Source: Elusimicrobiales bacterium
GTDB taxonomy: Bacteria > Elusimicrobiota > Elusimicrobia > Elusimicrobiales > UBA9959
NCBI GenBank assembly: GCA_023701245.1
Contig: JAMPXK010000005.1
Location: forward strand, 385 to 64,384
Length of the DNA stretch: 64,000 nucleotides
Reading direction: 5' to 3'
The position numbers and the translations under genes were made by a program. Each line of letters starts with the position of its first letter. The first letter of the stretch is position 1. Positions 782-42,537 of this stretch are shown here, in pieces. The notes below the pieces were generated by a model. That model did no database searches and was not told the origin of the DNA. It saw only the letters and a program-made list of their open reading frames with translations.

Positions 782-2767
782 GTGAGACGCGAATATTATT
801 CAGCATCGATCTCCGCTTTCTGCTCTTCTTCCTCGGAGCAGATAGTCGGTCATTTAAGCCGGGGCAGCGCTGACGCCGGCTTCGCCGTCGATCCAGAGCA
901 GCTTTCCGCCTGGACTCAGCAGATAGAGATTCTTCAAAAAGCGCTGCGGGGCAAAGAGGGCAAGATCTATTTCGAGTACTCCATCCCGCGCATGGGGCGC
1001 AGGATAGACGTGGTGCTCATAATCGAGCACGTGATCTTTGTGCTGGAGTTCAAGGTGGGCGCGCAGGACTTTTCGGCTTATGCGGTGGACCAGGTGCTGG
1101 ATTACGCGCTGGACCTTTCAAATTTCCACGAAACCAGCCACGGCAAATATGTGGCCCCGGTGCTTATCTCCACACAGGCCCAGCCCCAGCCGGTGGCCGT
1201 GAGCTGTTCCGCCAACAACCCCAAGCTCTTCACGCCCATCAAATGCGCCGCCTCGCAGATCAACCAGGTGATTGCCGCGGCGCTCGCCTTCGCCGACGGC
1301 CCCAGCATAGCTGCCGAAACCTGGGAGGGCGGGCGCTACTCGCCTACGCCCACCATTGTTGAAGCCGCCATGGCTTTATACCGCGGGCATAAAGTGGCGG
1401 AGATCAGCCGCAGCGACGCCGGCGCCATAAACCTGGCTCAGACCTCGGCCAGCGTGGCGCAGATAATAGCCGCCGCCCGCGCGGGCCGGCGCAAGGCCAT
1501 CTGCTTTGTAGCGGGCGTGCCCGGCGCGGGGAAAACCCTGGTGGGCCTTAATATCGCCACCACCCACATCAACAAGGACGACGAGTTATACAGCGTCTTT
1601 CTTTCCGGCAATGGCCCGCTGGTGGCGGTGCTGCGCGAGGCCCTCGCCCGGGACAAGGTTCTGCATGAAAAGGCCAAGGGTAAAAAGGTAAGGAAAGGGG
1701 CCGTGCTCAGCGATGTTAAGATGTTTGTGCAGAACGTGCACAATTTCCGGGACGACTGCCTTATAGACGGGGGGCCGCCTAAAGAGCACGTGGCGCTTTT
1801 CGACGAGGCCCAGCGGGCCTGGGACCTGCAGCAGACAGCCAACTTCATGAAGCGCAAGAAGAAGCGCCCCGACTTCAACCAGTCCGAGCCGGAGTTCCTG
1901 ATCTCCTGCCTGGACCGGCATCCGGACTGGGCCGTGATAGTGTGCCTGGTGGGCGGCGGCCAGGAGATAAACACCGGCGAGGCCGGCATAAGCGAGTGGA
2001 TAGACTCGCTCCTGCGCCGGTTCCCCGGCTGGGACGTCTACATTTCGCCGCGCCTTACCGACAGCGAATACGGCGCGGGCTCGGTTATCGCCAAATTAAA
2101 AGAGACGCCGCTGAAGGTGGAATACAAGGACGAGCTGCACCTGGCCGTTTCGCTGCGCTCTTTCCGCGCCGAGCGCGTCTCCGAGCTGGTTAAGAAGGTG
2201 CTGGACCTGGAGGCCGCCTCCGCCAAAGAGACGCTTAAGGCCATTGGCGCCAACTACCCCATAGTGCTTACCCGCGACCTGCAGAAAGCCAAGCGCTGGC
2301 TGCGCGAGCGCGCGCAGGGCACCGAGCGCTACGGCATAGTGGTGTCTTCCCAGGCCGAGCGGCTTAAGCCCTACGCTATAGACGTGAAATCACCCGTGGA
2401 CCCGGTGGACTGGTTCCTGGCCGGCAAGGACGACGTGCGCTCGTCCTATTACCTGGAGGACGTGGCCACGGAATTCCACGTGCAGGGCCTGGAGCTGGAC
2501 TGGGCCTGCGTCACCTGGGACGCGGACATGCGGTTTACCCCCGCAGGCTGGGAGAACTGGTCCTTCAAGGGCAACAAATGGCTGCGCATCCTCAAAAACG
2601 CGCGCAAAGACTACCAGAAAAACGCCTACCGCGTTTTATTGACCCGCGCCCGCCAGGGCATGGTGCTGGTGGTGCCGGAGGGGGAGCCCGCCGACCACAC
2701 CCGACTCCCGGGGTTTTATAACTCCACCTACGAGTACCTGCAAAGCATCGGCTTCCCGGTAATTTAA
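782..2767 (+). CDS. DUF2075 / Schlafen-group-3-like ATPase-helicase with N-terminal nuclease-like region
   Basis: 664-aa ORF with Walker A GVPGAGKT. The N-terminal segment [13 protein letters not shown] looks PD-(D/E)xK/NERD-like, and the C-terminal [17 protein letters not shown] is typical of SF1-like helicase ends. Start is ambiguous (TTG 773 or GTG 782). Confidence 0.8.
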
Positions 2768-2841
2768 TTCAAAATAGTCATTTCCAACCCGACAGACCGT
2801 TGTCGGGTTGGCCTGCTATGCTATTGGCAGGAGGGGGCATT
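2358..2841 (+). repeat. repeat A1: DUF2075 3' end plus downstream palindrome/promoter (direct repeat of 3793..4277)
   Basis: Aligned by eye with 3793..4277. The encoded 126 aa differ at 6 positions, and the intergenic palindrome and -10 are identical. Confidence 0.85.
2786..2822 (+). promoter_or_regulatory. palindrome AACCCGACA-N6-TGTCGGGTT + 6 nt + TGcTATGCT extended -10 (module copy 1)
   Basis: CCCGACA 2788-2794, TGTCGGG 2801-2807, TATGCT 2817-2822. GGAGGGGG RBS and ATG 2842 follow. Confidence 0.7.
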
Positions 2842-3789
2842 ATGGGTATTAAGAGAATCACAGTGCAGGGAAAGGACGTTTCCATTATAGAGAAGGGGAA
2901 CGCCGATTATATCTCGTTGGGTGACATGGCCAGGAAGTTCGGCGATGAACTGCTTGTTTATGCCTGGATGCGCAACCGCAACACAGTGGAATTCCTTGGC
3001 ATATGGGAAAGGTTAAATAACCCGGATTTTAACCCTATCGAATTCGATAGGGTTAAAAAAGAAGCCGGGCTGAACAGTTTTACGCTTTCCCCGAAAAAAT
3101 GGCGCGAAGCGACCGGCGCGATCGGAGTGATTTCAAGGGCCGGGCGTTACGGAGGCGGTATCTTCGCCCATAAGGACATCGCCTTCGAATTCGCGGCCTG
3201 GCTCAGCCCAGAATTCAAACTATACCTGATAAAGGAATTTCAGCGCCTGAAGGAGGCCGAGGCCGAGCGCCTGAAAACAGGCTGGGATGTTCAGCGTGCG
3301 CTCGCTAAAGTGAATTACCGCATCCACACGGACGCCATAAAAGAGGTGCTGCTGCCGCCGCGCCTGGGGCATGCCCAGATAGAAGCCGTCTATGCCAGCG
3401 AGGCGGACCTGCTGAACGTAGCCCTGTTCGGCCGCACGGCGGCGCAGTGGCGGCAGGAGAATCCCGCGAGGCAAGGCAATATGCGTGACTATGCCACTGT
3501 TGATCAGTTGGTTGTTCTTTCAAATCTCGAAAGCGTGAATTCGGTGCTGATTCGGCAGGGGCTGACGCAGAGTCAAAGGCTGCGTCAATTGAATGCCACG
3601 GCGATAGCACAGATGCACTCGCTGCTCGGACTACCGGCTGTCAGGCGCCTTGGGACAAAGGAACCGGAGGCAAAATACACGGCCGGATCAAACCGGAAGT
3701 CAAAGGGGTCGAATTCGACCCCTTATCAATATTTTAATTATGGCGAATCTGCCATATTTAGAACGGTTAGGAGGGTACATGAAAACTAA
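2842..3789 (+). CDS. KilA-N domain protein (antirepressor-like)
   Basis: The N-terminus (ISLGDMARKFG...WMRNRNTVEFLGIWE...GGIFAHKDIAFEFAAWLSPEFKLYLIKEFQRL) matches KilA-N proteins as I remember them. RBS lies before ATG 2842. Confidence 0.8.
   Translation: MGIKRITVQGKDVSIIEKGNADYISLGDMARKFGDELLVYAWMRNRNTVEFLGIWERLNNPDFNPIEFDRVKKEAGLNSFTLSPKKWREATGAIGVISRAGRYGGGIFAHKDIAFEFAAWLSPEFKLYLIKEFQRLKEAEAERLKTGWDVQRALAKVNYRIHTDAIKEVLLPPRLGHAQIEAVYASEADLLNVALFGRTAAQWRQENPARQGNMRDYATVDQLVVLSNLESVNSVLIRQGLTQSQRLRQLNATAIAQMHSLLGLPAVRRLGTKEPEAKYTAGSNRKSKGSNSTPYQYFNYGESAIFRTVRRVHEN
3736..3788 (+). repeat. repeat B' (copy of 5511..5565 junction, contains a decapitated MKT start)
   Basis: ttatggcgaatctgccatatttagaacggttaggagggtacatgaaaac here versus ttgtggcgaattcgccatatttagaacggttaggagggaacatgaaaac at 5511. 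Confidence 0.8.
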
Positions 3790-3792
3790 AGT

Positions 3793-4200
3793 CGGGCTTC
3801 ACCTTACGCCATAGACGTGAAATCCCCCGTGGACCCGGTTGACTGGTTCCTGGCCGGCAAGGACGACGTGCGCTCGTCCTATTATCTGGAGGACGTGGCC
3901 ACGGAATTCCACGTGCAGGGCCTGGAGCTGGACTGGGCCTGCGTCACCTGGGACGCGGACATGCGGTTTACACCCGCGGGCTGGGAGAACTGGTCCTTCA
4001 AGGGCGACAAATGGCTGCGCATCCTCAAAGACGCGCGCAAAGACTACCAGAAGAACGCTTACCGCGTGTTACTCACCCGCGCCCGCCAAGGCATGGTACT
4101 GGTGGTGCCGGAGGGGGAGACCGCGGACCACACCCGGCTCCCGGGGTTCTATAACTCCACCTACGACTACCTGCGGGATATCGGCTTCCCTGTAATTTAA
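3793..4200 (+). pseudogene. orphan 3' fragment of a DUF2075 gene (repeat A2)
   Basis: The 127-aa ORF 3817..4200 is ~95% identical to the C-terminus of the 782..2767 product. It lacks the whole ATPase part. Confidence 0.85.
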
Positions 4201-4220
4201 ATACAAAATCGCCATTCGCA

Positions 4221-4257
4221 AACCCGACAGACCGTTGTCGGGTTCACCTGCTATGCT
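4221..4257 (+). promoter_or_regulatory. palindrome + extended -10 module copy 2
   Basis: CCCGACA 4223-4229, TGTCGGG 4236-4242, TATGCT 4252-4257. Lies inside repeat A2. Confidence 0.7.
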
Positions 4258-4277
4258 ATTTGTGGGAAGGGGGACTT

Positions 4278-5369
4278 ATGGCCAAGAAAAAGCAGGTAAA
4301 GAAGATTGCACATTCGCAGTCACAGCCACCGGCAGTAGTGGATGAAGCCGGGCTTCTTTCCGACCTCCGTGCGCTCATTCAATCCGCCCGCCAGCGCGTG
4401 GCCACAGTGGCCAATTCTACATTTACAATGCTGTACTGGCATGTAGGGCGACGCTTGCTGAAGGAAAACCTTCAAGGAGGCCGTGCTGCCTATGGGAAAC
4501 GAATTCTTGCGACAGTGTCGCAACAATTGAGCGCAGACTTCGGGGAAGGGTTTACTTACTCTGCGCTTACCAGGATGATCCGCTTTGCGGAAGCTCAACC
4601 AGATGAGGCAATTGTGTCGACGCTGTCGACACAATTAAGCTGGAGCCATTTCATGGAGATATTGCCGGTCAAAGATCCGCTCGCCCGGGACTTCTACGCA
4701 GAGATGTGCCGGATCGAGCATTGGGACGTCCGCACGCTGCGCAAAAAGATAGGCGGTATGTTATTCCAGCGCACGGCCCTGTCGAAGAATACCAAGGAGG
4801 TGATCTCGGCGGAACTCGGCAACCTGCGCGCAGGTCATGTAACGCCTGAGACCGTTTTCCGCGACCCGTATATTCTGGATTGCCTGGGCCTGAAAGGAGC
4901 CTATAGTGAACGCGACCTGGAAGGCGCCATCCTGCGCGAGATGGAAGGCTTCCTGCTGGAAATGGGCCCGGGGTTCAGTTTTGTCGCCCGGCAAAAACGT
5001 ATGAGCGTGGGCAAGGATGACTTTCATCTGGACCTGCTCTTCTATCATCGTCACCTGCGCCGGCTGGTCGCCATTGAGTTAAAGCTTGAGTCTTTTCAAC
5101 CGGCCCATGTGGGGCAGATGGAGTTCTACTTGCGCTGGCTGGACAAGCATGAACGAGCACCCGGTGAAAAGTCTCCTATCGGTCTGATACTCTGTGCCTC
5201 TGCCGACGCTGAACAGGTGGAACTCTGTCGGTTGGACGCCAAAGCCATCCGCGTAAGCGAATACCTCACCGAACTGCCGCCCATGCCTCTTCTGCAGACC
5301 CGCCTGCACCAGGCTATAGAGCACGCCCGTGAGCAGGCCGCCATGCGCCTCAGAGGAAAGGAGGGGTAA
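4278..5369 (+). CDS. YhcG-like PDDEXK nuclease domain protein (DUF1016)
   Basis: The C-terminal DLLFYHRHLRRLVAIELKLESFQPAHVGQMEFYLRWL is the typical DUF1016/YhcG core. ATG 4278 follows GGGAAGGGGG. Confidence 0.8.
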   Translation: MAKKKQVKKIAHSQSQPPAVVDEAGLLSDLRALIQSARQRVATVANSTFTMLYWHVGRRLLKENLQGGRAAYGKRILATVSQQLSADFGEGFTYSALTRMIRFAEAQPDEAIVSTLSTQLSWSHFMEILPVKDPLARDFYAEMCRIEHWDVRTLRKKIGGMLFQRTALSKNTKEVISAELGNLRAGHVTPETVFRDPYILDCLGLKGAYSERDLEGAILREMEGFLLEMGPGFSFVARQKRMSVGKDDFHLDLLFYHRHLRRLVAIELKLESFQPAHVGQMEFYLRWLDKHERAPGEKSPIGLILCASADAEQVELCRLDAKAIRVSEYLTELPPMPLLQTRLHQAIEHAREQAAMRLRGKEG

Positions 5370-5371
5370 CG

Positions 5372-5398
5372 TTTGAGGTCGCAATTCGCGACCTCAAA
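5372..5398. repeat. perfect 11-5-11 palindrome TTTGAGGTCGC-aattc-GCGACCTCAAA
   Basis: Starts 2 nt after the yhcG-like stop. Reads L-R-S-Q-F-A-T-S-K in one frame. No U-tract follows. Confidence 0.8.
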
Positions 5399-5510
5399 GG
5401 GGCGGGGCGCCGGGCATTATTTGTCTTCGAATAGCGACGAGAGCTCCGGTCCGAAGAAATAAATAGGTTTTTGACCGGTATAAAATTAGACACGGGAGGC
5501 AGGGTAAATG

Positions 5511-5565
5511 TAATTGTGGCGAATTCGCCATATTTAGAACGGTTAGGAGGGAACATGAAAACGTT
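5511..5565 (+). repeat. repeat B (junction sequence with RBS and start of 5555 ORF)
   Basis: See 3736..3788. Confidence 0.8.
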
Positions 5566-5866
5566 AACTTATCCGTATGAGCAGCCGCTGCCTTACCCTA
5601 CCCGCCCTATAAAGGTCGAGGGCGGGTATGTCGACGCGTATATCATCCCCGAAGAGAAAAAGGGAGAGGTGTTAAAGGCGCTCTACCCTTTTATCCCTGT
5701 CCCGTCGCTGGATGCGGTGATGCTGGATATCCATGAGGACAAGACATTCAAGGTGCGGGAATTTATGGTGCTGCGCAGCCCGGAGATGCACTGGCTGGTC
5801 AGCCCGGACTATCCCAAAAGCGGGGGCACGGTAATAGACTGGTGTGACCCCGAAGAAGAAGGGTGA
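5555..5866 (+). CDS. hypothetical small protein (103 aa)
   Basis: GGAGGG RBS 6 nt upstream of ATG 5555. No family recognised. Confidence 0.55.
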   Translation: MKTLTYPYEQPLPYPTRPIKVEGGYVDAYIIPEEKKGEVLKALYPFIPVPSLDAVMLDIHEDKTFKVREFMVLRSPEMHWLVSPDYPKSGGTVIDWCDPEEEG

Positions 5867-5889
5867 CTTGTCCGATTCGACAGGCACCG

Positions 5890-6081
5890 CCTGTTGAATC
5901 CCGAGCGGTCAGGAATTGCTGGAAAGTCCTGAAAAACCGCCTTAAGGCCTAAGGCAGTGAGTTGGTTACAAGGTGTAACCAACTGAAATTGCAGGCCGCT
6001 GATGGCAAATACTACCTCACTGACGTGGCGTCCCCGGAACAGCCGGCGCAACTGGTGACAAATTGGCGCCGGTTCAGTTAA
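5890..6081 (+). pseudogene. remnant of a Bro-N/antirepressor-type gene (middle part only, in-frame TAA)
   Basis: One frame reads NCWKVLKNRLKA*GSELVTRCNQLKLQAADGKYYLTDVASPEQ. This resembles the YW..LK.RL..EGSE.VT.C.QLK..A.DGK...TD motif I recall from Bro-N family proteins. There is a stop at 5950-5952 and no start. Confidence 0.45.
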
Positions 6082-6089
6082 TCGCAGAC

Positions 6090-6114
6090 TTGAGGTTCCA
6101 AATTGGAACCTCAA
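6090..6114. repeat. perfect 12-1-12 palindrome TTGAGGTTCCAA-a-TTGGAACCTCAA
   Basis: Shares its outer arms TTGAGGT/ACCTCAA with 5372..5398. Reads L-R-F-Q-I-G-T-S-K-stop. Confidence 0.8.
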
Positions 6115-6180
6115 AATGAACTGGTTGCACAATATGTCCGTCCGGGCATAATTCTGCCACAGCTTGTGGCGGAAATAAGG

Positions 6181-6298
6181 CGTGACATTATGTCACGGGT
6201 TGAAACCCCTCGAATTCGAGGGGTTTAAATTGGCAACAGCCTGTTGCCAAATTGGGCGGAAGGCGGGGCCCGTCATTTTGGCGACAGCTTGTCGCCAA
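6181..6298. promoter_or_regulatory. array of three palindromes with rACA-N3-TGTy cores upstream of tag
   Basis: cGTGACA-tta-TGTCACg at 6181-6197, TTGGCAACA-gcc-TGTTGCCAA at 6230-6250, TTGGCGACA-gct-TGTCGCCAA at 6278-6298. Centres are ~51 and 48 bp apart. The last ends 6 nt before TATACT 6305-6310. Confidence 0.5.
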
Positions 6299-6310
6299 AT
6301 GAAATATACT

Positions 6311-6901: not shown

Positions 6902-6941
6902 CCCGCCCGGGCGCCGCTCAATTCCAAAAAATCCTCTCCCG

Positions 6942-6977
6942 CCCCGACACTACGGTGTCGGGGTGGTCTGCTATGCT
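6942..6977 (+). promoter_or_regulatory. palindrome + extended -10 module copy 3
   Basis: CCCGACA 6943-6949, TGTCGGG 6956-6962, TATGCT 6972-6977. Confidence 0.7.
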
Positions 6978-6999
6978 ATTTGTGAGGAAGAAGGGGATT

Positions 7000-7518
7000 A
7001 TGTCTAAAGAAATTATTCCACATGAGATACTTGAGTCAAAGATACTTTTGATCCGTAAACATAAAGTCCTGCTCGACCGCGACCTCGCAGCTCTATACCA
7101 GGTTGAAACCCGCGTATTGAACCAGGCGGTAAGACGTAATCTCGACCGCTTCCCGGAGGACTTTATTTTTAAGTTGACCCGCGATGAAATACGAGACTTA
7201 TCACAATTTGTGATAAGTCCGGGGCTCAAACATGCTCCTAACGTATTTGCGTTTACGGAGCAGGGGGTGGCGATGCTTTCCGGGGTGCTTCACAGTAAGC
7301 GCGCCATAGCGGTCAACATCGCTATAATGCGCACCTTCGTCAAATTGCGTGGGTTGCTGGCCGAGCACGTTGACCTGAGGCGCAAACTGGAGGAGATGGA
7401 AAAGAAATATGACTACCAGTTCAAAGTGGTGTTCGACGCCATTAAAAGCCTTATCGCGGAGCCGCCGCCGGTTAAGAAGATAGGTTTTACGGCAAAGATC
7501 CAGGGTCACAATTTGTGA
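7000..7518 (+). CDS. ORF6N domain protein (Rha/antirepressor-like DNA-binding)
   Basis: VLLDRDLAALYQVETRVLNQAVRRNLDRFPEDFIFKLT...FAFTEQGVAMLSGVLHSKRAIAVNIAIMRTF is the typical ORF6N core. AAGGGG RBS precedes ATG 7000. Confidence 0.8.
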   Translation: MSKEIIPHEILESKILLIRKHKVLLDRDLAALYQVETRVLNQAVRRNLDRFPEDFIFKLTRDEIRDLSQFVISPGLKHAPNVFAFTEQGVAMLSGVLHSKRAIAVNIAIMRTFVKLRGLLAEHVDLRRKLEEMEKKYDYQFKVVFDAIKSLIAEPPPVKKIGFTAKIQGHNL

Positions 7519-15656: not shown

Positions 15657-17222
15657 ATGCTGAATCCCGCTATTCTTCTTTTTATCCCTTTGTTCGCGCC
15701 GGCCGCCGCCGCGCAGGAAGTTTTTGAAACTTTAGCCGCGCAGGCTCCCGCCGCCGCCGCGGCCGCCCCGGAGCCGGGCGCGCCGGTAAAACAGCCGCCG
15801 CCCGTTGTGGACCTTGCCTCCCCCGGCGCCATAGCCGCGCTTACCCCGGCCGAAATGGCCGCCGCCACGCCCGAACAGCGCCTGGCCATGCTCAGGACTT
15901 TAATGAAGCATTCCTCCCCGGCCATGAATAACGGGGAGGCCGACTGGCGCCAGCAGCAGACCGAAGCCGCCATCTACCGCCTGTTCGAAAGCGCCCCCGA
16001 CGCGGCCGCTTTCGACGCGCTGTATTACCACGTGCGGCGCCTGAAGCTGCACGGCGCGGTAACCTATCCCGCCGCCATAGAAAAACTGGCCGACCGCCAC
16101 CTGGCCGCCACCGTGCCCGGCGACTGGGCCGGCCTGGCCGCCTATATAGACGCGGTTACCGGGTCGCGCAGTTCGGGCCTGAACAAAATTGATTTCCTGA
16201 TAGACGGCGCGGTTCTGCCCGCGGCCGAAGCCGCCATAGACGCGGCCCGGGAGTCTATCCACATAGAAGTGTACCAGCTGCAGGCCGACGACATAGGCTG
16301 GGCGCTGGCGCGTAAGCTGGCGGCCAAGGCCAAAGAGGGCGTGCAGGTGCGCCTGCTGGTGGACTATTACGGCTCCGGCGTTAAGAAGGGGCTGGAGATA
16401 CAGAAGCTGCTGGCTTTCCTGCGGGAGAACGGCGCCGAGGCCCGCACCAACGATTCCGCCCGCTGGACTGGCAGCCGCGACCACCGCAAGGTGATGGTGG
16501 TGGACGGCCGCGTGGGCTTTACCGGCGGCATGAACATAGGCGGCCATTACCAGGTGGACTGGCACGACCAGCAGAGCCGCCTGGACGGCCCCGCCGTGGC
16601 CCGCCTGCAGGACTCTTTCCTGGAGCAGTGGGAGGAATCCGGCGGCACCGTGCGCGAGCGGGCGGCTTTTTACCCGGAGCTGCGCAATTTCCCCGGCGGC
16701 GTAGAGGCGCGGGTGGTGTACCACACCGGCAATACGGACCGCAATATAAAGGCCATGTACCTGCGCGCCTTCCACACGGCGCAAAAGAGCATAAGCGCGG
16801 CGGCGCCCTATTTTGCCGACCCCGACGTGGTGGACGCGCTGGCGGCGGCGGCCCTGCGCGGCGTAAAAGTGCAATTGGTTTTCCCGGCGCTCAACAACAA
16901 GGCCATAGCTATGAAGAGCTCCCGCTCTTTTTACCCGCAGCTGCTGGCGGCCGGCGTGGAGATCTACGAATACCAGGGCCGCATGGCCCACCAGAAAGTG
17001 GTCACCATAGACGGCGTGTGGAGCAGCTTCGGCTCTTCCAACCTCGACAGCCGCAGCCTTAAGAACAACCACGAACTCAACGTGGTTGTGCAGGACGCGG
17101 GGCTGGCGGACTATATAGGCGCGGAGATGTTCGCCAAGGACATACCGCAGAGCAGCCGCATAACGCATTATAAACCCACCTTCATGGACAAAGTGGCCGG
17201 CCGGCTTTACCCCTGGCTGTAA
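15657..17222 (+). CDS. cls: phospholipase D family protein, cardiolipin synthase-like
   Basis: Two HKD motifs: HRKVMVVDGRVGFTGGMNIG and HQKVVTIDGVWSSFGSSNLDSRS. Confidence 0.85.
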   Translation: MLNPAILLFIPLFAPAAAAQEVFETLAAQAPAAAAAAPEPGAPVKQPPPVVDLASPGAIAALTPAEMAAATPEQRLAMLRTLMKHSSPAMNNGEADWRQQQTEAAIYRLFESAPDAAAFDALYYHVRRLKLHGAVTYPAAIEKLADRHLAATVPGDWAGLAAYIDAVTGSRSSGLNKIDFLIDGAVLPAAEAAIDAARESIHIEVYQLQADDIGWALARKLAAKAKEGVQVRLLVDYYGSGVKKGLEIQKLLAFLRENGAEARTNDSARWTGSRDHRKVMVVDGRVGFTGGMNIGGHYQVDWHDQQSRLDGPAVARLQDSFLEQWEESGGTVRERAAFYPELRNFPGGVEARVVYHTGNTDRNIKAMYLRAFHTAQKSISAAAPYFADPDVVDALAAAALRGVKVQLVFPALNNKAIAMKSSRSFYPQLLAAGVEIYEYQGRMAHQKVVTIDGVWSSFGSSNLDSRSLKNNHELNVVVQDAGLADYIGAEMFAKDIPQSSRITHYKPTFMDKVAGRLYPWL

Positions 17223-17240
17223 GGCCCGGCGCTGGCGGCA

Positions 17241-17274
17241 AGGACCGGAGGAGATCCCTCCGGTCCTTTTTTTT
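17241..17274 (+). terminator. intrinsic terminator
   Basis: AGGACCGGAGG-agatc-CCTCCGGTCCT followed by T8. Confidence 0.85.
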
Positions 17275-17275
17275 A

Positions 17276-17310
17276 CCCGACACTACGCTGTCGGGGCGGC
17301 CTGCTATGCT
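17276..17310 (+). promoter_or_regulatory. palindrome + extended -10 module copy 4 (ssb)
   Basis: CCCGACA 17276-17282, TGTCGGG 17289-17295, TATGCT 17305-17310. Confidence 0.7.
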
Positions 17311-17342
17311 ATTGGGAGTAAAAATTACCGCAAGGGGGCAGT

Positions 17343-17852
17343 ATGGGGAACCTGAATAAAGTGATGCTGATAGGGCGGCTGACGCGCGACCCGGAGGTGA
17401 CGGAGTTCAAGAACGGGGGCAAGGTGGCCAACCTGGGCTTTGCCGTGCACAACCGCCGCAAGAACGCGCAGACCGGCGAGTGGGAGGAAGTGCCGGTGTG
17501 GGTGAGCATGAAGGCCTACAATCACGAGCATGGCCGCAAGCTCGCGGACCTGGCCGCCAGGCTGCACAAGGGGCGGCAGGTGTACGTGGAGGGGCACCTG
17601 GTGCTGGAGCAATGGGACGGCAAAGAGGACGGCAAGCACCATTCCCGGATGCTGGTGTACGTGGACGGCATAGAGTTCCTGGGCGGGGGAAAGCCCGGCG
17701 AAGGCCCGGGCGGCGGGGAAGCCGGCGCCCAGGCGGCGCCCGCGGACCATCTGCCGGGCGAGCACGTGGCAGACGCGGGCTGGCCGGAAGAACTGCCGGA
17801 AGAGCCCGCGGAACCCGCGCCCAGGGCGGCCAGGGGCAAGGGCCGCAAATAG
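17343..17852 (+). CDS. ssb: single-stranded DNA-binding protein
   Basis: OB-fold N-terminus NLNKVMLIGRLTRDPEV...VYVEGHL. The C-terminus ends RGKGRK rather than the acidic DDDIPF-type tip. Confidence 0.9.
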   Translation: MGNLNKVMLIGRLTRDPEVTEFKNGGKVANLGFAVHNRRKNAQTGEWEEVPVWVSMKAYNHEHGRKLADLAARLHKGRQVYVEGHLVLEQWDGKEDGKHHSRMLVYVDGIEFLGGGKPGEGPGGGEAGAQAAPADHLPGEHVADAGWPEELPEEPAEPAPRAARGKGRK

Positions 17853-40473: not shown

Positions 40474-40508
40474 CCCGACACAACGGTGTCGGGATGAGTT
40501 GGTAGACT
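40474..40508 (+). promoter_or_regulatory. palindrome + extended -10 module copy 5 (recA proximal)
   Basis: CCCGACA 40474-40480, TGTCGGG 40487-40493, TGgTAGACT 40500-40508. Confidence 0.7.
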
Positions 40509-40543: not shown

Positions 40544-41649
<1,106 letters not shown>

Positions 41650-41650
<1 letters not shown>

Positions 41651-42537
41651 TGCGACCGCTGGCGGCTGACTTCTCGCGTCATCTCGGCATGGAGCGGGGC
41701 CTGGCAAAGAACACCTGCCTCGCCTATGCCGGGGACGCGGAGGCCTTCCTGGCCTATTGCGAGGGCAGGAAGACGGACCCCGCGCGGGCCGAAGCGCCGT
41801 TCATAGAAGAATACCTGTGGTCGCTAAAGACCGTGCGCAAGCTGGGGCCCGCGTCCATCTTCCGCAAGACCGAGGCCATCCGCGCCTTCTACCGCTACCT
41901 GCGGCTGGAAGGCAAGGCCGCCAAAGATCCCACCGCCAATTTCCGCGCTCCCAAACTGCCCCGCAAAGTGCCGCGCTTCCTGGCGCGGCGCGACATGGAA
42001 CGCCTGCTGAGCTACCCGGCGGGAGAGGCTTTTGCCAAGCTGCGGGCAGCCGCCGCCGTGGAACTGCTGTACGCCAGCGGCATAAGGGTGTCCGAACTGC
42101 TGGGCCTGCGCCTGGAGTCCGTAAATTTCCAGCAGGGCTGGCTGCGCGTGTTCGGCAAGGGCGCCAAGGAACGCATGGTGCCGGTCAACGCGGCCGCCCT
42201 GTCGCGCCTGCGGGACTATTTGTCCGCCCGGCAGCAGAAGTTCGGCGGCACGCCGGTGGCCGACGAACTGTTCCTGAACCGCGGCGGCAAACAGCTCAGC
42301 CGCGTGCAGATGTGGAAGGATATAGTGGCTTTCGGCCGCGCGGCGGGGGTGGAACTGAAGCCGCACCCGCACCTGTTCCGGCACACCTTCGCCAGCCACC
42401 TGGTGCAGGGCGGCGCGGACCTGCGCAGCGTCCAGGAGATGCTGGGCCACGCCAGCCTTAACACCACCCAGATCTACGCCCACGTGGACAAGGGCGACAT
42501 AAAGCGCGCCCACGACAAGTTTCACCCCGACAAGTAA
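41650..42537 (+). CDS. xerD: tyrosine recombinase XerC/XerD family
   Basis: R..HxxR..Y motifs: LFRHTFASHLVQGGADLRSVQEMLGHASLNTTQIYAHV. The ATG overlaps the recA TAA by 1 nt. Confidence 0.85.

Follow-up and report, generated by a model that had tools for sequence, protein, structure and literature searches.

Tandem defence-candidate cassettes behind a DUF2075 helicase gene in an Elusimicrobiales bacterium probably record additive, integrase-free acquisition by 3'-end displacement

The 64,000-nucleotide stretch of contig JAMPXK010000005.1 from an Elusimicrobiales bacterium analyzed here (the window) carries two cassettes in tandem behind an intact DUF2075 helicase gene, the first with a KilA-N domain gene and the second with a YhcG/DUF1016 nuclease gene, and between them lies an orphan copy of the helicase 3' end. 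We consider it probable (about 70%) that this tandem structure is the recombination scar of an additive cassette acquisition that needed no integrase, here called 3'-end displacement. Recombination scars of this kind are already known, and the present case extends them to new gene families and to a new phylum. The scar is of an ordinary kind, and the less expected part of the locus is the promoter of the recA/ssb type that its defence-candidate cassettes share. The elements of the tandem structure are the following:

773-2767, + strand: intact DUF2075/SLFN-g3 (Schlafen group 3) helicase gene, the anchor of the locus (Pfam PF09848, 3.4e-81; PADLOC PDC-S41, 1.8e-279)
2360-2841, + strand: repeat A1, comprising the last ~126 helicase codons, a short spacer and promoter module 1
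2842-3789, + strand: KilA-N domain gene (Pfam KilA-N, 1.8e-16; PADLOC PDC-S22, 3.2e-125, residues 4-272 only)
3735-3786, + strand: repeat B', a remnant with an intergenic hairpin, a ribosome-binding site and the first 8 nt (ATGAAAAC) of a small open reading frame (ORF)
3787-4277, + strand: repeat A2, the orphan helicase 3' end, whose frame is unbroken between 3817 and the stop at 4200, followed by promoter module 2
3817-4200, + strand: orphan helicase fragment (Pfam match to profile positions 250-353 only)
4278-5369, + strand: YhcG/DUF1016 PD-(D/E)xK nuclease gene (Pfam YhcG_C, 1e-46; DUF1016_N, 5e-41; PADLOC PDC-S02, 4e-121)
5511-5562, + strand: repeat B, with the hairpin TGGCGAATTCGCCA, the ribosome-binding site and the start of the small ORF
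5555-5866, + strand: small ORF of 103 amino acids, with no Pfam family and 58 homologues

A repeat search of the window paired A1 (2369-2668) with A2 (3802-4101) at 95% identity, the promoter stretch containing the dyad (2786-2837) with 4221-4272 at 88%, and B' with B at 92%. In a pairwise MAFFT alignment the homology between A1 and A2 is clean from ~2374/~3807 through to 2841/4277, and can be followed back to ~2360/~3793 in a decayed, frameshifted form that affects approximately the first 15 nt of A2. The coding part differs at 25 of 384 nt (93.5% identity), and the exact runs shared by both copies reach 86 bp. Repeats A1/A2 and B'/B are too long and too similar to be due to chance. An earlier note on this DNA had placed A1 and A2 correctly and recognized a duplication of ~485 bp, but the uniform identity of ~95% that it gave has to be replaced by 93-95%, with a decayed and frameshifted start of A2; the ~50-bp repeat that it saw at B' and B, including the ribosome-binding site and the start of the small ORF, was borne out. 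Read directly, B' holds that ribosome-binding site and ATGAAAAC and ends abruptly at 3786/3787, where it meets A2 in a joint whose sequence is unique within the window and which we propose to be illegitimate. Neither the gene's own terminator-like hairpin (3706-3723) nor B' interrupts the KilA-N ORF, which stops at 3787-3789 on the joint, so that its native stop may have been lost. The same ORF extends ~40 codons beyond the coverage of the PDC-S22 profile before it ends there.

The small ORF clarifies what B' represents. Nearly all of its named homologues come from Elusimicrobia, among them a 100% match in an NCBI metagenome-assembled genome (MAG) of Elusimicrobiales, and in seven related loci (L004, L159, L160 and L162-L165) the small ORF directly follows or overlaps the YhcG gene; in L042 it stands immediately behind a promoter. 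Given the conserved pairing of the small ORF with YhcG, B is an internal junction of a YhcG-small ORF operon and lies within the YhcG cassette, and could not be maintained as the fixed right-hand boundary of a variable slot for which it had been taken. The presence of B' behind KilA-N then shows that it is a remnant and that the donor's KilA-N gene had been followed by the small ORF. More generally, YhcG/DUF1016 and a familyless protein of 101-103 amino acids form a conserved two-gene unit in Elusimicrobia, with stop and start often overlapping. The usual view of YhcG is that of a candidate consisting of one gene (PDC-S02).

Related loci, designated by L numbers, were collected by a protein-guided scan with one genome per species and complemented with loci from metagenomes. 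All ten helicases closely related to that of the window (87-96% amino-acid identity) are from MAGs of Elusimicrobiota or Elusimicrobiales. One of these loci, L029, is 95.6% identical to positions 1790-2825 of the window and diverges exactly after the promoter sequence CTGCTATGCTATT, carrying a HigB-like gene and an HTH/M78 gene in place of KilA-N; in other relatives ORF6N, YhcG or KilA-N genes stand behind the same promoter. The alignment of related loci that the earlier note had proposed as a check thus revealed alternative cargo at the same junction, and its idea of a variable slot with alternative cargo captured in tandem holds, but not that of a defined A-X-B site, because the breakpoints differ between genomes. 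Displaced helicase ends are common in the relatives and seem to have arisen more than once; they start at residue ~295 in L126, 316 in L092, 331 in L030, 513 in L024, 517-522 in L027 and L135, 529 in the window, 554 in L152 and 630 in L004, a spread of ~1 kb. In L027 the order is helicase, Mrr-like gene, promoter-YhcG, displaced end, a gene for 215 amino acids and promoter-KilA-N, the fragment beginning at window-equivalent 2322, 8 nt past the YhcG stop. L024 retains a 65-bp remnant (window-equivalent 2308-2373) behind ORF6N, L030 a decayed remnant of ~1 kb from window-equivalent 1764 (~residue 331), and L004 the final ~35 helicase codons behind YhcG-small ORF; the metagenome loci L092, L126, L135 and L152 contribute fragments from residues 316, 295, 522 and 554. 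The scar also appears with another anchor in L159, where the gene order is Tag, promoter-YhcG-small ORF, a Tag fragment (residues 160-195) and promoter-YhcG2, and at an intergenic site in L087, where a HigBA-like cassette lies between direct repeats of ~130 bp made of pre-promoter sequence and promoter. Altogether, 4 of the 29 loci with two or more promoters contain duplicated pre-promoter sequence. No fixed boundaries, as an attachment site would leave, emerged from this comparison, with breakpoints up to 1 kb apart and further scars at Tag and between genes. Hence the alternative already raised, an insertion that restores the 3' end of the gene, is right as to the effect but not as to site-specificity.

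Some observations on helicase remnants stand apart from this series. Public data hold hundreds of short C-terminal DUF2075 fragments (123-217 amino acids) from many phyla, most of which may be frameshifts or contig ends and not displaced ends. The fragments of 204 amino acids found across phyla were considered as widespread orphan ends, an idea rejected when the inspected case (L031, 6643-8615) turned out to be a frameshifted full-length gene, and the short database fragments were not counted as evidence. In L030 (3450-4000) the decaying remnant is broken up by numerous hairpins, all short, GC-rich and alike in style, which resemble repetitive extragenic palindromic (REP) sequences; one example, CGCCCGCATAGCGGGCG, is also present in L024 (3760-3800), and GCATAGCG is not enriched in the window.

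The differences between A1 and A2 bear on the origin of the two copies. Over 127 codons we counted 16 synonymous and 9 non-synonymous differences, corresponding to proportions of synonymous and non-synonymous differences (pS and pN) of 0.183 and 0.031 and to a pN/pS of 0.17. As these differences are mostly synonymous and the frame of A2 is intact, both copies appear to have diverged as working alleles and to have been joined later. Such a pattern argues against duplication in place followed by decay, and for divergence under purifying selection in different genomes. Exchange between genomes seems to be frequent at this locus, since the relatives carry mosaic versions of the helicase gene with blocks 90-100% identical, while neighbouring housekeeping genes are less alike (exonuclease 79% in L006, TPR gene 71% in L027). 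An alternative scenario would be that the A-promoter-cargo-B' unit was duplicated in place by unequal crossing-over, the cargo of one copy being replaced later by homologous exchange through the promoter and B. It accounts for a topology of tandem duplication with a single novel joint, the promoter and B would offer the flanking homology for a later swap, and the cargo homology of L029 indeed stops exactly at the promoter. Nevertheless, it requires two events instead of one, the synonymous bias of the 6.5% divergence would be unexpected in a dead copy diverging in place, and gene conversion would tend to homogenize 480-bp repeats situated 1.4 kb apart, for which reasons we regard it as unlikely.

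According to the favoured account of 3'-end displacement, the resident locus would have had the order helicase-A2-promoter-YhcG-small ORF and the incoming DNA, from a related Elusimicrobia strain, the order helicase-A1-promoter-KilA-N-(B)-small ORF. A homologous crossover within the helicase gene would have joined them on the left, and on the right codon 3 of the donor's small ORF would have been linked by an illegitimate event to the resident helicase gene, at approximately position 2357. An equivalent route would be the integration of a 1.4-kb circle composed of A, promoter, KilA-N and B' by one homologous crossover within A. The product of either route would be helicase-A1-promoter-KilA-N-B'|A2-promoter-YhcG, in which the helicase is kept intact by means of the incoming 3' end and KilA-N is gained with its own promoter. 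The old 3' end would be pushed downstream together with the YhcG cassette, no integrase being necessary. We infer from this order that KilA-N is the newer cargo and YhcG the resident one. A gene with a TfoX_N domain, a competence-regulator domain, was observed within the equivalent island of L160 (8006-8338), which would be relevant if natural transformation brings the incoming DNA.

Several points weigh against this account or blur it. An identical product results whether linear DNA is joined illegitimately at one end or a circle integrates in Campbell fashion, so the finished sequence does not tell one route from the other, and microhomology across the B'|A2 joint does not exceed 1-2 nt. The L030 remnant has the same left end as A2, CTAAAGYCGGGC, preceded there by a different upstream sequence; this common end implies that the joint is perhaps older than the arrival of KilA-N and that the history comprised more steps than the simple model. 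The left end may have been inherited, as the circle route predicts, or it may reflect such a longer history. Besides, three breakpoints (window-equivalent 2308, 2322 and 2357) fall within 50 bp beside a 10-bp palindrome, GGCTTAAGCC, and these clustered breakpoints may result from shared descent or from a local hotspot, not from independent random joints. When the parent alleles of A1 and A2 were traced in the relatives through 40 distinguishing sites, no intact one was found and all alleles were mosaics. Finally, the tandem form is that of the finished assembly, and may not be the majority form in the population.

The genes that follow the helicase in other genomes bring in another possible mechanism. 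In relatives the helicase is mostly followed by a variable nuclease gene, stop and start often overlapping, with NERD in L001, L002, L004 and L006, Mrr_cat in L005 and L027, and HNH in L003; the next gene is an unknown one in L159 and behind the second copy in L027, and the window helicase has no such nuclease partner. This suggests that the DUF2075 helicase and its interchangeable nuclease genes constitute a two-gene system with swappable effectors. The Mrr_cat partners occur with or without a zinc ribbon. A homing-like process could be envisaged, in which helicase alleles free of the cassette are cut by YhcG or another cargo nuclease, or by the helicase-nuclease itself, and repair from a template that has the cassette brings in both the cassette and the 3' end beside it. 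Cargo or partners are often nucleases (YhcG in the window; NERD, Mrr_cat and HNH in relatives), three breakpoints are clustered within 50 bp by GGCTTAAGCC, and duplication of a gene's 3' end beside endonuclease genes is known from organelle genomes. Against it, the KilA-N, ORF6N and HigBA cassettes lack a nuclease, the breakpoints cover 1 kb, the scar is also found at Tag and in an intergenic region, and homing normally results in clean replacement with no leftover fragment and no illegitimate joint, all of which makes this explanation improbable. It is hardly credible that the contig is an artefact of assembly that fuses two strains which co-existed and differed in cargo, even though the source is a MAG, the repeats share exact runs of up to 86 bp and the contig of relative L018 ends within the helicase gene, because merging of alleles cannot create the novel B'|A2 joint, similar structures were recovered in the independent assemblies L027, L030, L092, L135, L152 and L159, and the left end of A2 recurs in L030.

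Displacement of a gene's 3' end, as favoured here, has published counterparts. In Rhs loci, displacement of C-terminal regions and the formation of orphan rhs/cdiA-CT modules have been ascribed to homologous recombination with a small circle, without integrase (Jackson et al. 2009, PMC2935791). As in those loci, an intact gene is followed here by one or more dissociated fragments of its 3' part that retain variable lengths of the gene body and recur in related genomes; a newcomer shifts the old end downstream without deletion, and in relatives of the window the identity of the gene after the helicase (NERD, Mrr, HNH or unknown) varies together with the 3' end. In contrast to Rhs and contact-dependent inhibition (CDI) loci, the displaced C-terminus of the window is near-identical to the intact one (6 changes in 127 residues) and not a different toxin domain, no immunity gene accompanies it, and what varies is a separate gene transcribed from a promoter of its own, with no evident toxin/immunity logic. 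The effector-immunity arrays of Vibrio cholerae's type VI secretion system (T6SS) grow through sequential displacement by homology-facilitated illegitimate recombination (PMC5361080), and share with the window a conserved upstream anchor, an illegitimate far end and older genes or effector 3' ends shifted back into arrays; they differ in gene families and phylum, and the genes retained in the window are not immunity genes. With integrons the locus has in common tandem arrays of varied single-gene units at one place and a strain-specific content. However, integrons are defined by IntI, attI and attC, whereas the island is devoid of integrase in the ORFs tested, its junctions are not site-specific and the element common to its units, a promoter that recA and ssb have as well, sits 5' of each gene. 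The helicase resembles Nhi and Nhi-like proteins in its DUF2075 domain and possibly in an N-terminal nuclease motif, yet the PADLOC Nhi model matches it weakly (4e-4); in its N-terminal part a D...EFK motif can be made out by eye, and Pfam finds no domain there. If the favoured account is correct, 3'-end displacement, so far described for polymorphic toxin loci, would also shape defence-candidate islands around a DUF2075 helicase, in a phylum that has received little study.

The promoter that precedes both cassettes is present elsewhere in the window, with the following copies and genes:

2786-2825, + strand: promoter module 1, before KilA-N, with the dyad AACCCGACA-GACCGT-TGTCGGGTT at 2786-2809, TGTCGG at 2801-2806, a 10-nt spacer and TATGCT at 2817-2822
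4221-4257, + strand: promoter module 2, before YhcG, with the dyad at 4221-4244, TGTCGG at 4236-4241 and TATGCT at 4252-4257
6941-6992, + strand: promoter module 3, before the ORF6N gene
7000-7518, + strand: ORF6N gene, the third cassette of the same island, with promoter module 3 upstream (PADLOC PDC-S05, 6e-52)
17277-17313, + strand: promoter with the same dyad, before ssb
17343-17852, + strand: ssb (Pfam SSB, 9.7e-21)
40475-40508, + strand: perfect dyad with TGTCGG-N10-TAGACT, 35 nt upstream of recA
40544-41650, + strand: recA (Pfam RecA, 1.7e-136)

The four copies of CTGCTATGCTATT in the window, all on the + strand and before KilA-N, YhcG, ORF6N and ssb, have the layout of a perfect dyad CCGACA-N6-TGTCGG followed by 10 nt and TATGCT. 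With the site before recA, the pattern TGTCGG-N10-TAnnnT has five matches in the window, against 0.05 expected. A metagenome scan found the promoter on at least 120 contigs, and 215 sites with dyad and -10 element were collected from Elusimicrobia loci. Variation in the -10 element of these sites stays inside TAnnnT, the loop length is 6 nt throughout and the ATG is mostly found 19-24 nt further downstream; part of this conservation stems from the search pattern itself. Most copies stand before defence-candidate genes. The families behind them include ORF6N (23), YhcG (22), AlbA_2/HATPase_c_4 (14), KilA-N (9), IS200-like Y1 transposase (9), SSB (7), Gp49/HigB-like (6), DUF3800 (5), RadC (3) and the small ORF (3), and N-terminal sequences read by eye added Vsr-like, Dcm-like, Bro-N-like and RhuM-like genes. 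The IS200-like Y1 transposases are of the REP-associated tyrosine transposase (RAYT) type. As in a regulon of repair genes, recA and ssb in the window and radC and vsr-like genes elsewhere are located behind this promoter. A DNA-damage regulon is therefore a plausible reading of what the earlier note had called an SOS module, but LexA control is unsupported and the motif is of the PafBC/WYL type. The motif is not known to resemble any LexA box, although no LexA-box consensus was scanned for, and lexA was not recognized in the window or among ~200 downstream genes, in neither of which it was systematically searched for. A simple sigma-70 scan did not call the module; the -35 position falls in the variable loop of the dyad, and with the TG conserved at -15/-14 the module may instead be an extended -10 promoter, which a repressor would shut off. 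In the region 17222-17852 a strong terminator of the upstream PLD-like gene directly precedes the ssb dyad, indicating that the dyad does not itself act as a terminator. Other identities of the module were discarded: Rfam gave no match to a known RNA in the window, viral contigs yielded only chance half-matches without the dyad and hence no phage origin, and a REP-like nature, conceivable in view of the RAYT genes downstream, is at odds with the fixed orientation and start-codon distance.

The geometry of the dyad, with 9-bp inverted arms and a 6-bp spacer, is that of a core site for tyrosine recombinases, and arrays of promoter-gene units look like cassette arrays; moreover, an Xer-like gene overlaps the recA stop behind a dyad promoter. 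A site-specific mobile element of the integron or Xer/dif-module kind that recombines at the dyad seems very unlikely all the same. The ends of the duplications are variable and lie 50-1000 bp upstream of the dyad, the dyad spacers differ among sites, no integrase was found within the island and the half-matches in viral contigs do not point to such an element. What the dyad does show is the behaviour of a promoter, namely a fixed distance from TAnnnT and the start codon and a position before recA and ssb. That no integrase or transposase lies nearby, as had been observed before, was confirmed among the ORFs tested between 1 and 17.9 kb of the window. The sole tyrosine recombinase seen in the window is the Xer-like gene at 41650-42537, whose start overlaps the stop of recA and which may share with recA a transcript that starts at the damage-type promoter.

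Motif and gene content bring the promoter close to the system of PafBC in mycobacteria. The in vivo consensus of mycobacterial PafBC is tGTCgg(N10)tA(N3)T, in hybrid promoters that have a '-26 element' and no -35 element (PMC8635444), and the window motif fits this mycobacterial consensus exactly. The likeness to PafBC and its RecA-NDp promoters extends to the inclusion of recA among the targets and the adjacency of a WYL-WCX gene to a promoter copy, and perhaps to the lack of a conserved -35 element. There are differences as well, since PafBC is a heterodimer linked to Pup-proteasome genes and its site is non-palindromic (PMC6789036), while in the phylum Elusimicrobia the site is a perfect dyad and a single regulator gene was seen at each locus. 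A palindromic site and a single regulator gene make it likely that the candidate regulator would act as a homodimer. WYL regulators, among them PafBC, DriD, CapW and BrxR, control DNA-damage responses and defence systems, PafBC and DriD by activating transcription and CapW and BrxR by repressing it (PMC11662680). A likeness of the DriD operator to the dyad was considered and dropped, the published operator ATACGTCCGTTTCTGGCGCA being unrelated.

The candidate cognate factor was recognized in a related locus:

9793-10764 of L059: gene for a winged helix-turn-helix (wHTH)-WYL-WCX regulator (Pfam WCX, 7e-14; WYL, 2e-11; HTH_11, 3e-8)

Its best solved relative is PafC (7p5x, 4.5e-8), its homologues of named source all come from Elusimicrobia MAGs, and the gene itself keeps a conserved place in the core genome, close to tuf and MltA. 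In 4 of 5 loci (L059, L077, L166 and L169) a dyad promoter is situated 0.02-1.7 kb downstream of the regulator gene, where it drives an ORF of 57-63 amino acids whose ATG lies 5-6 nt past the motif. That ORF appears leaderless, and by analogy it resembles the small damage-induced proteins under other WYL regulators. A regex search for a WYL regulator in the window itself found none. We consider it most likely, from the sequences compared, that the promoter is controlled by the conserved Elusimicrobia wHTH-WYL-WCX regulator upon DNA damage or in response to single-stranded DNA (ssDNA). The link between the two, drawn from motif similarity and gene neighbourhood, supports the assignment without proving it. 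Should the assignment be right, PafBC-like promoter architecture would extend beyond Actinobacteria, and KilA-N, ORF6N, YhcG/DUF1016 and AlbA_2, widespread but functionally obscure, might act upon DNA damage or ssDNA, as their sharing of a promoter with recA and ssb would suggest.

A broader reading, which we put forward as tentative and rather doubtful as a whole, would be that Elusimicrobia possess a LexA-independent, WYL-controlled damage regulon whose PafBC-like promoter serves as a portable tag of dozens of defence-island genes. Those tagged would comprise KilA-N, ORF6N, Bro-N, RhuM, YhcG, AlbA_2, DUF3800, HigBA, Dcm/Vsr and RAYT genes, and the tag together with the upstream gene end would let RecA alone excise circles and add tandem cassettes. 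If true, this would be an integrase-free cassette system in which all members are switched on by ssDNA or DNA damage.

The four island genes for the helicase, KilA-N, YhcG and ORF6N all match PADLOC candidate families strongly, PDC families being candidates by genomic association and not proven defence systems. Given these matches the locus is composed like a defence island, and it is a portion of a variable island of defence-candidate genes, in which every cargo gene has the same promoter of ~40 bp. The 8-bp palindrome CGAATTCG has 6 copies in the 64-kb window against 1.3 expected, 5 of them within the 3.2 kb of island between 3039 and 6218, and most copies form the core of a longer perfect palindrome (3028-3057, within the KilA-N gene; 3706-3723; 5516-5531; 6200-6229). 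Between the small ORF and the tag gene, 440 bp (5867-6310) are non-coding and hairpin-rich, and a hairpin from this region, TTGAGGTTCCAAATTGGAACCTCAA (6090-6114), recurs at the cassette borders of L003, L004, L024 and L030.

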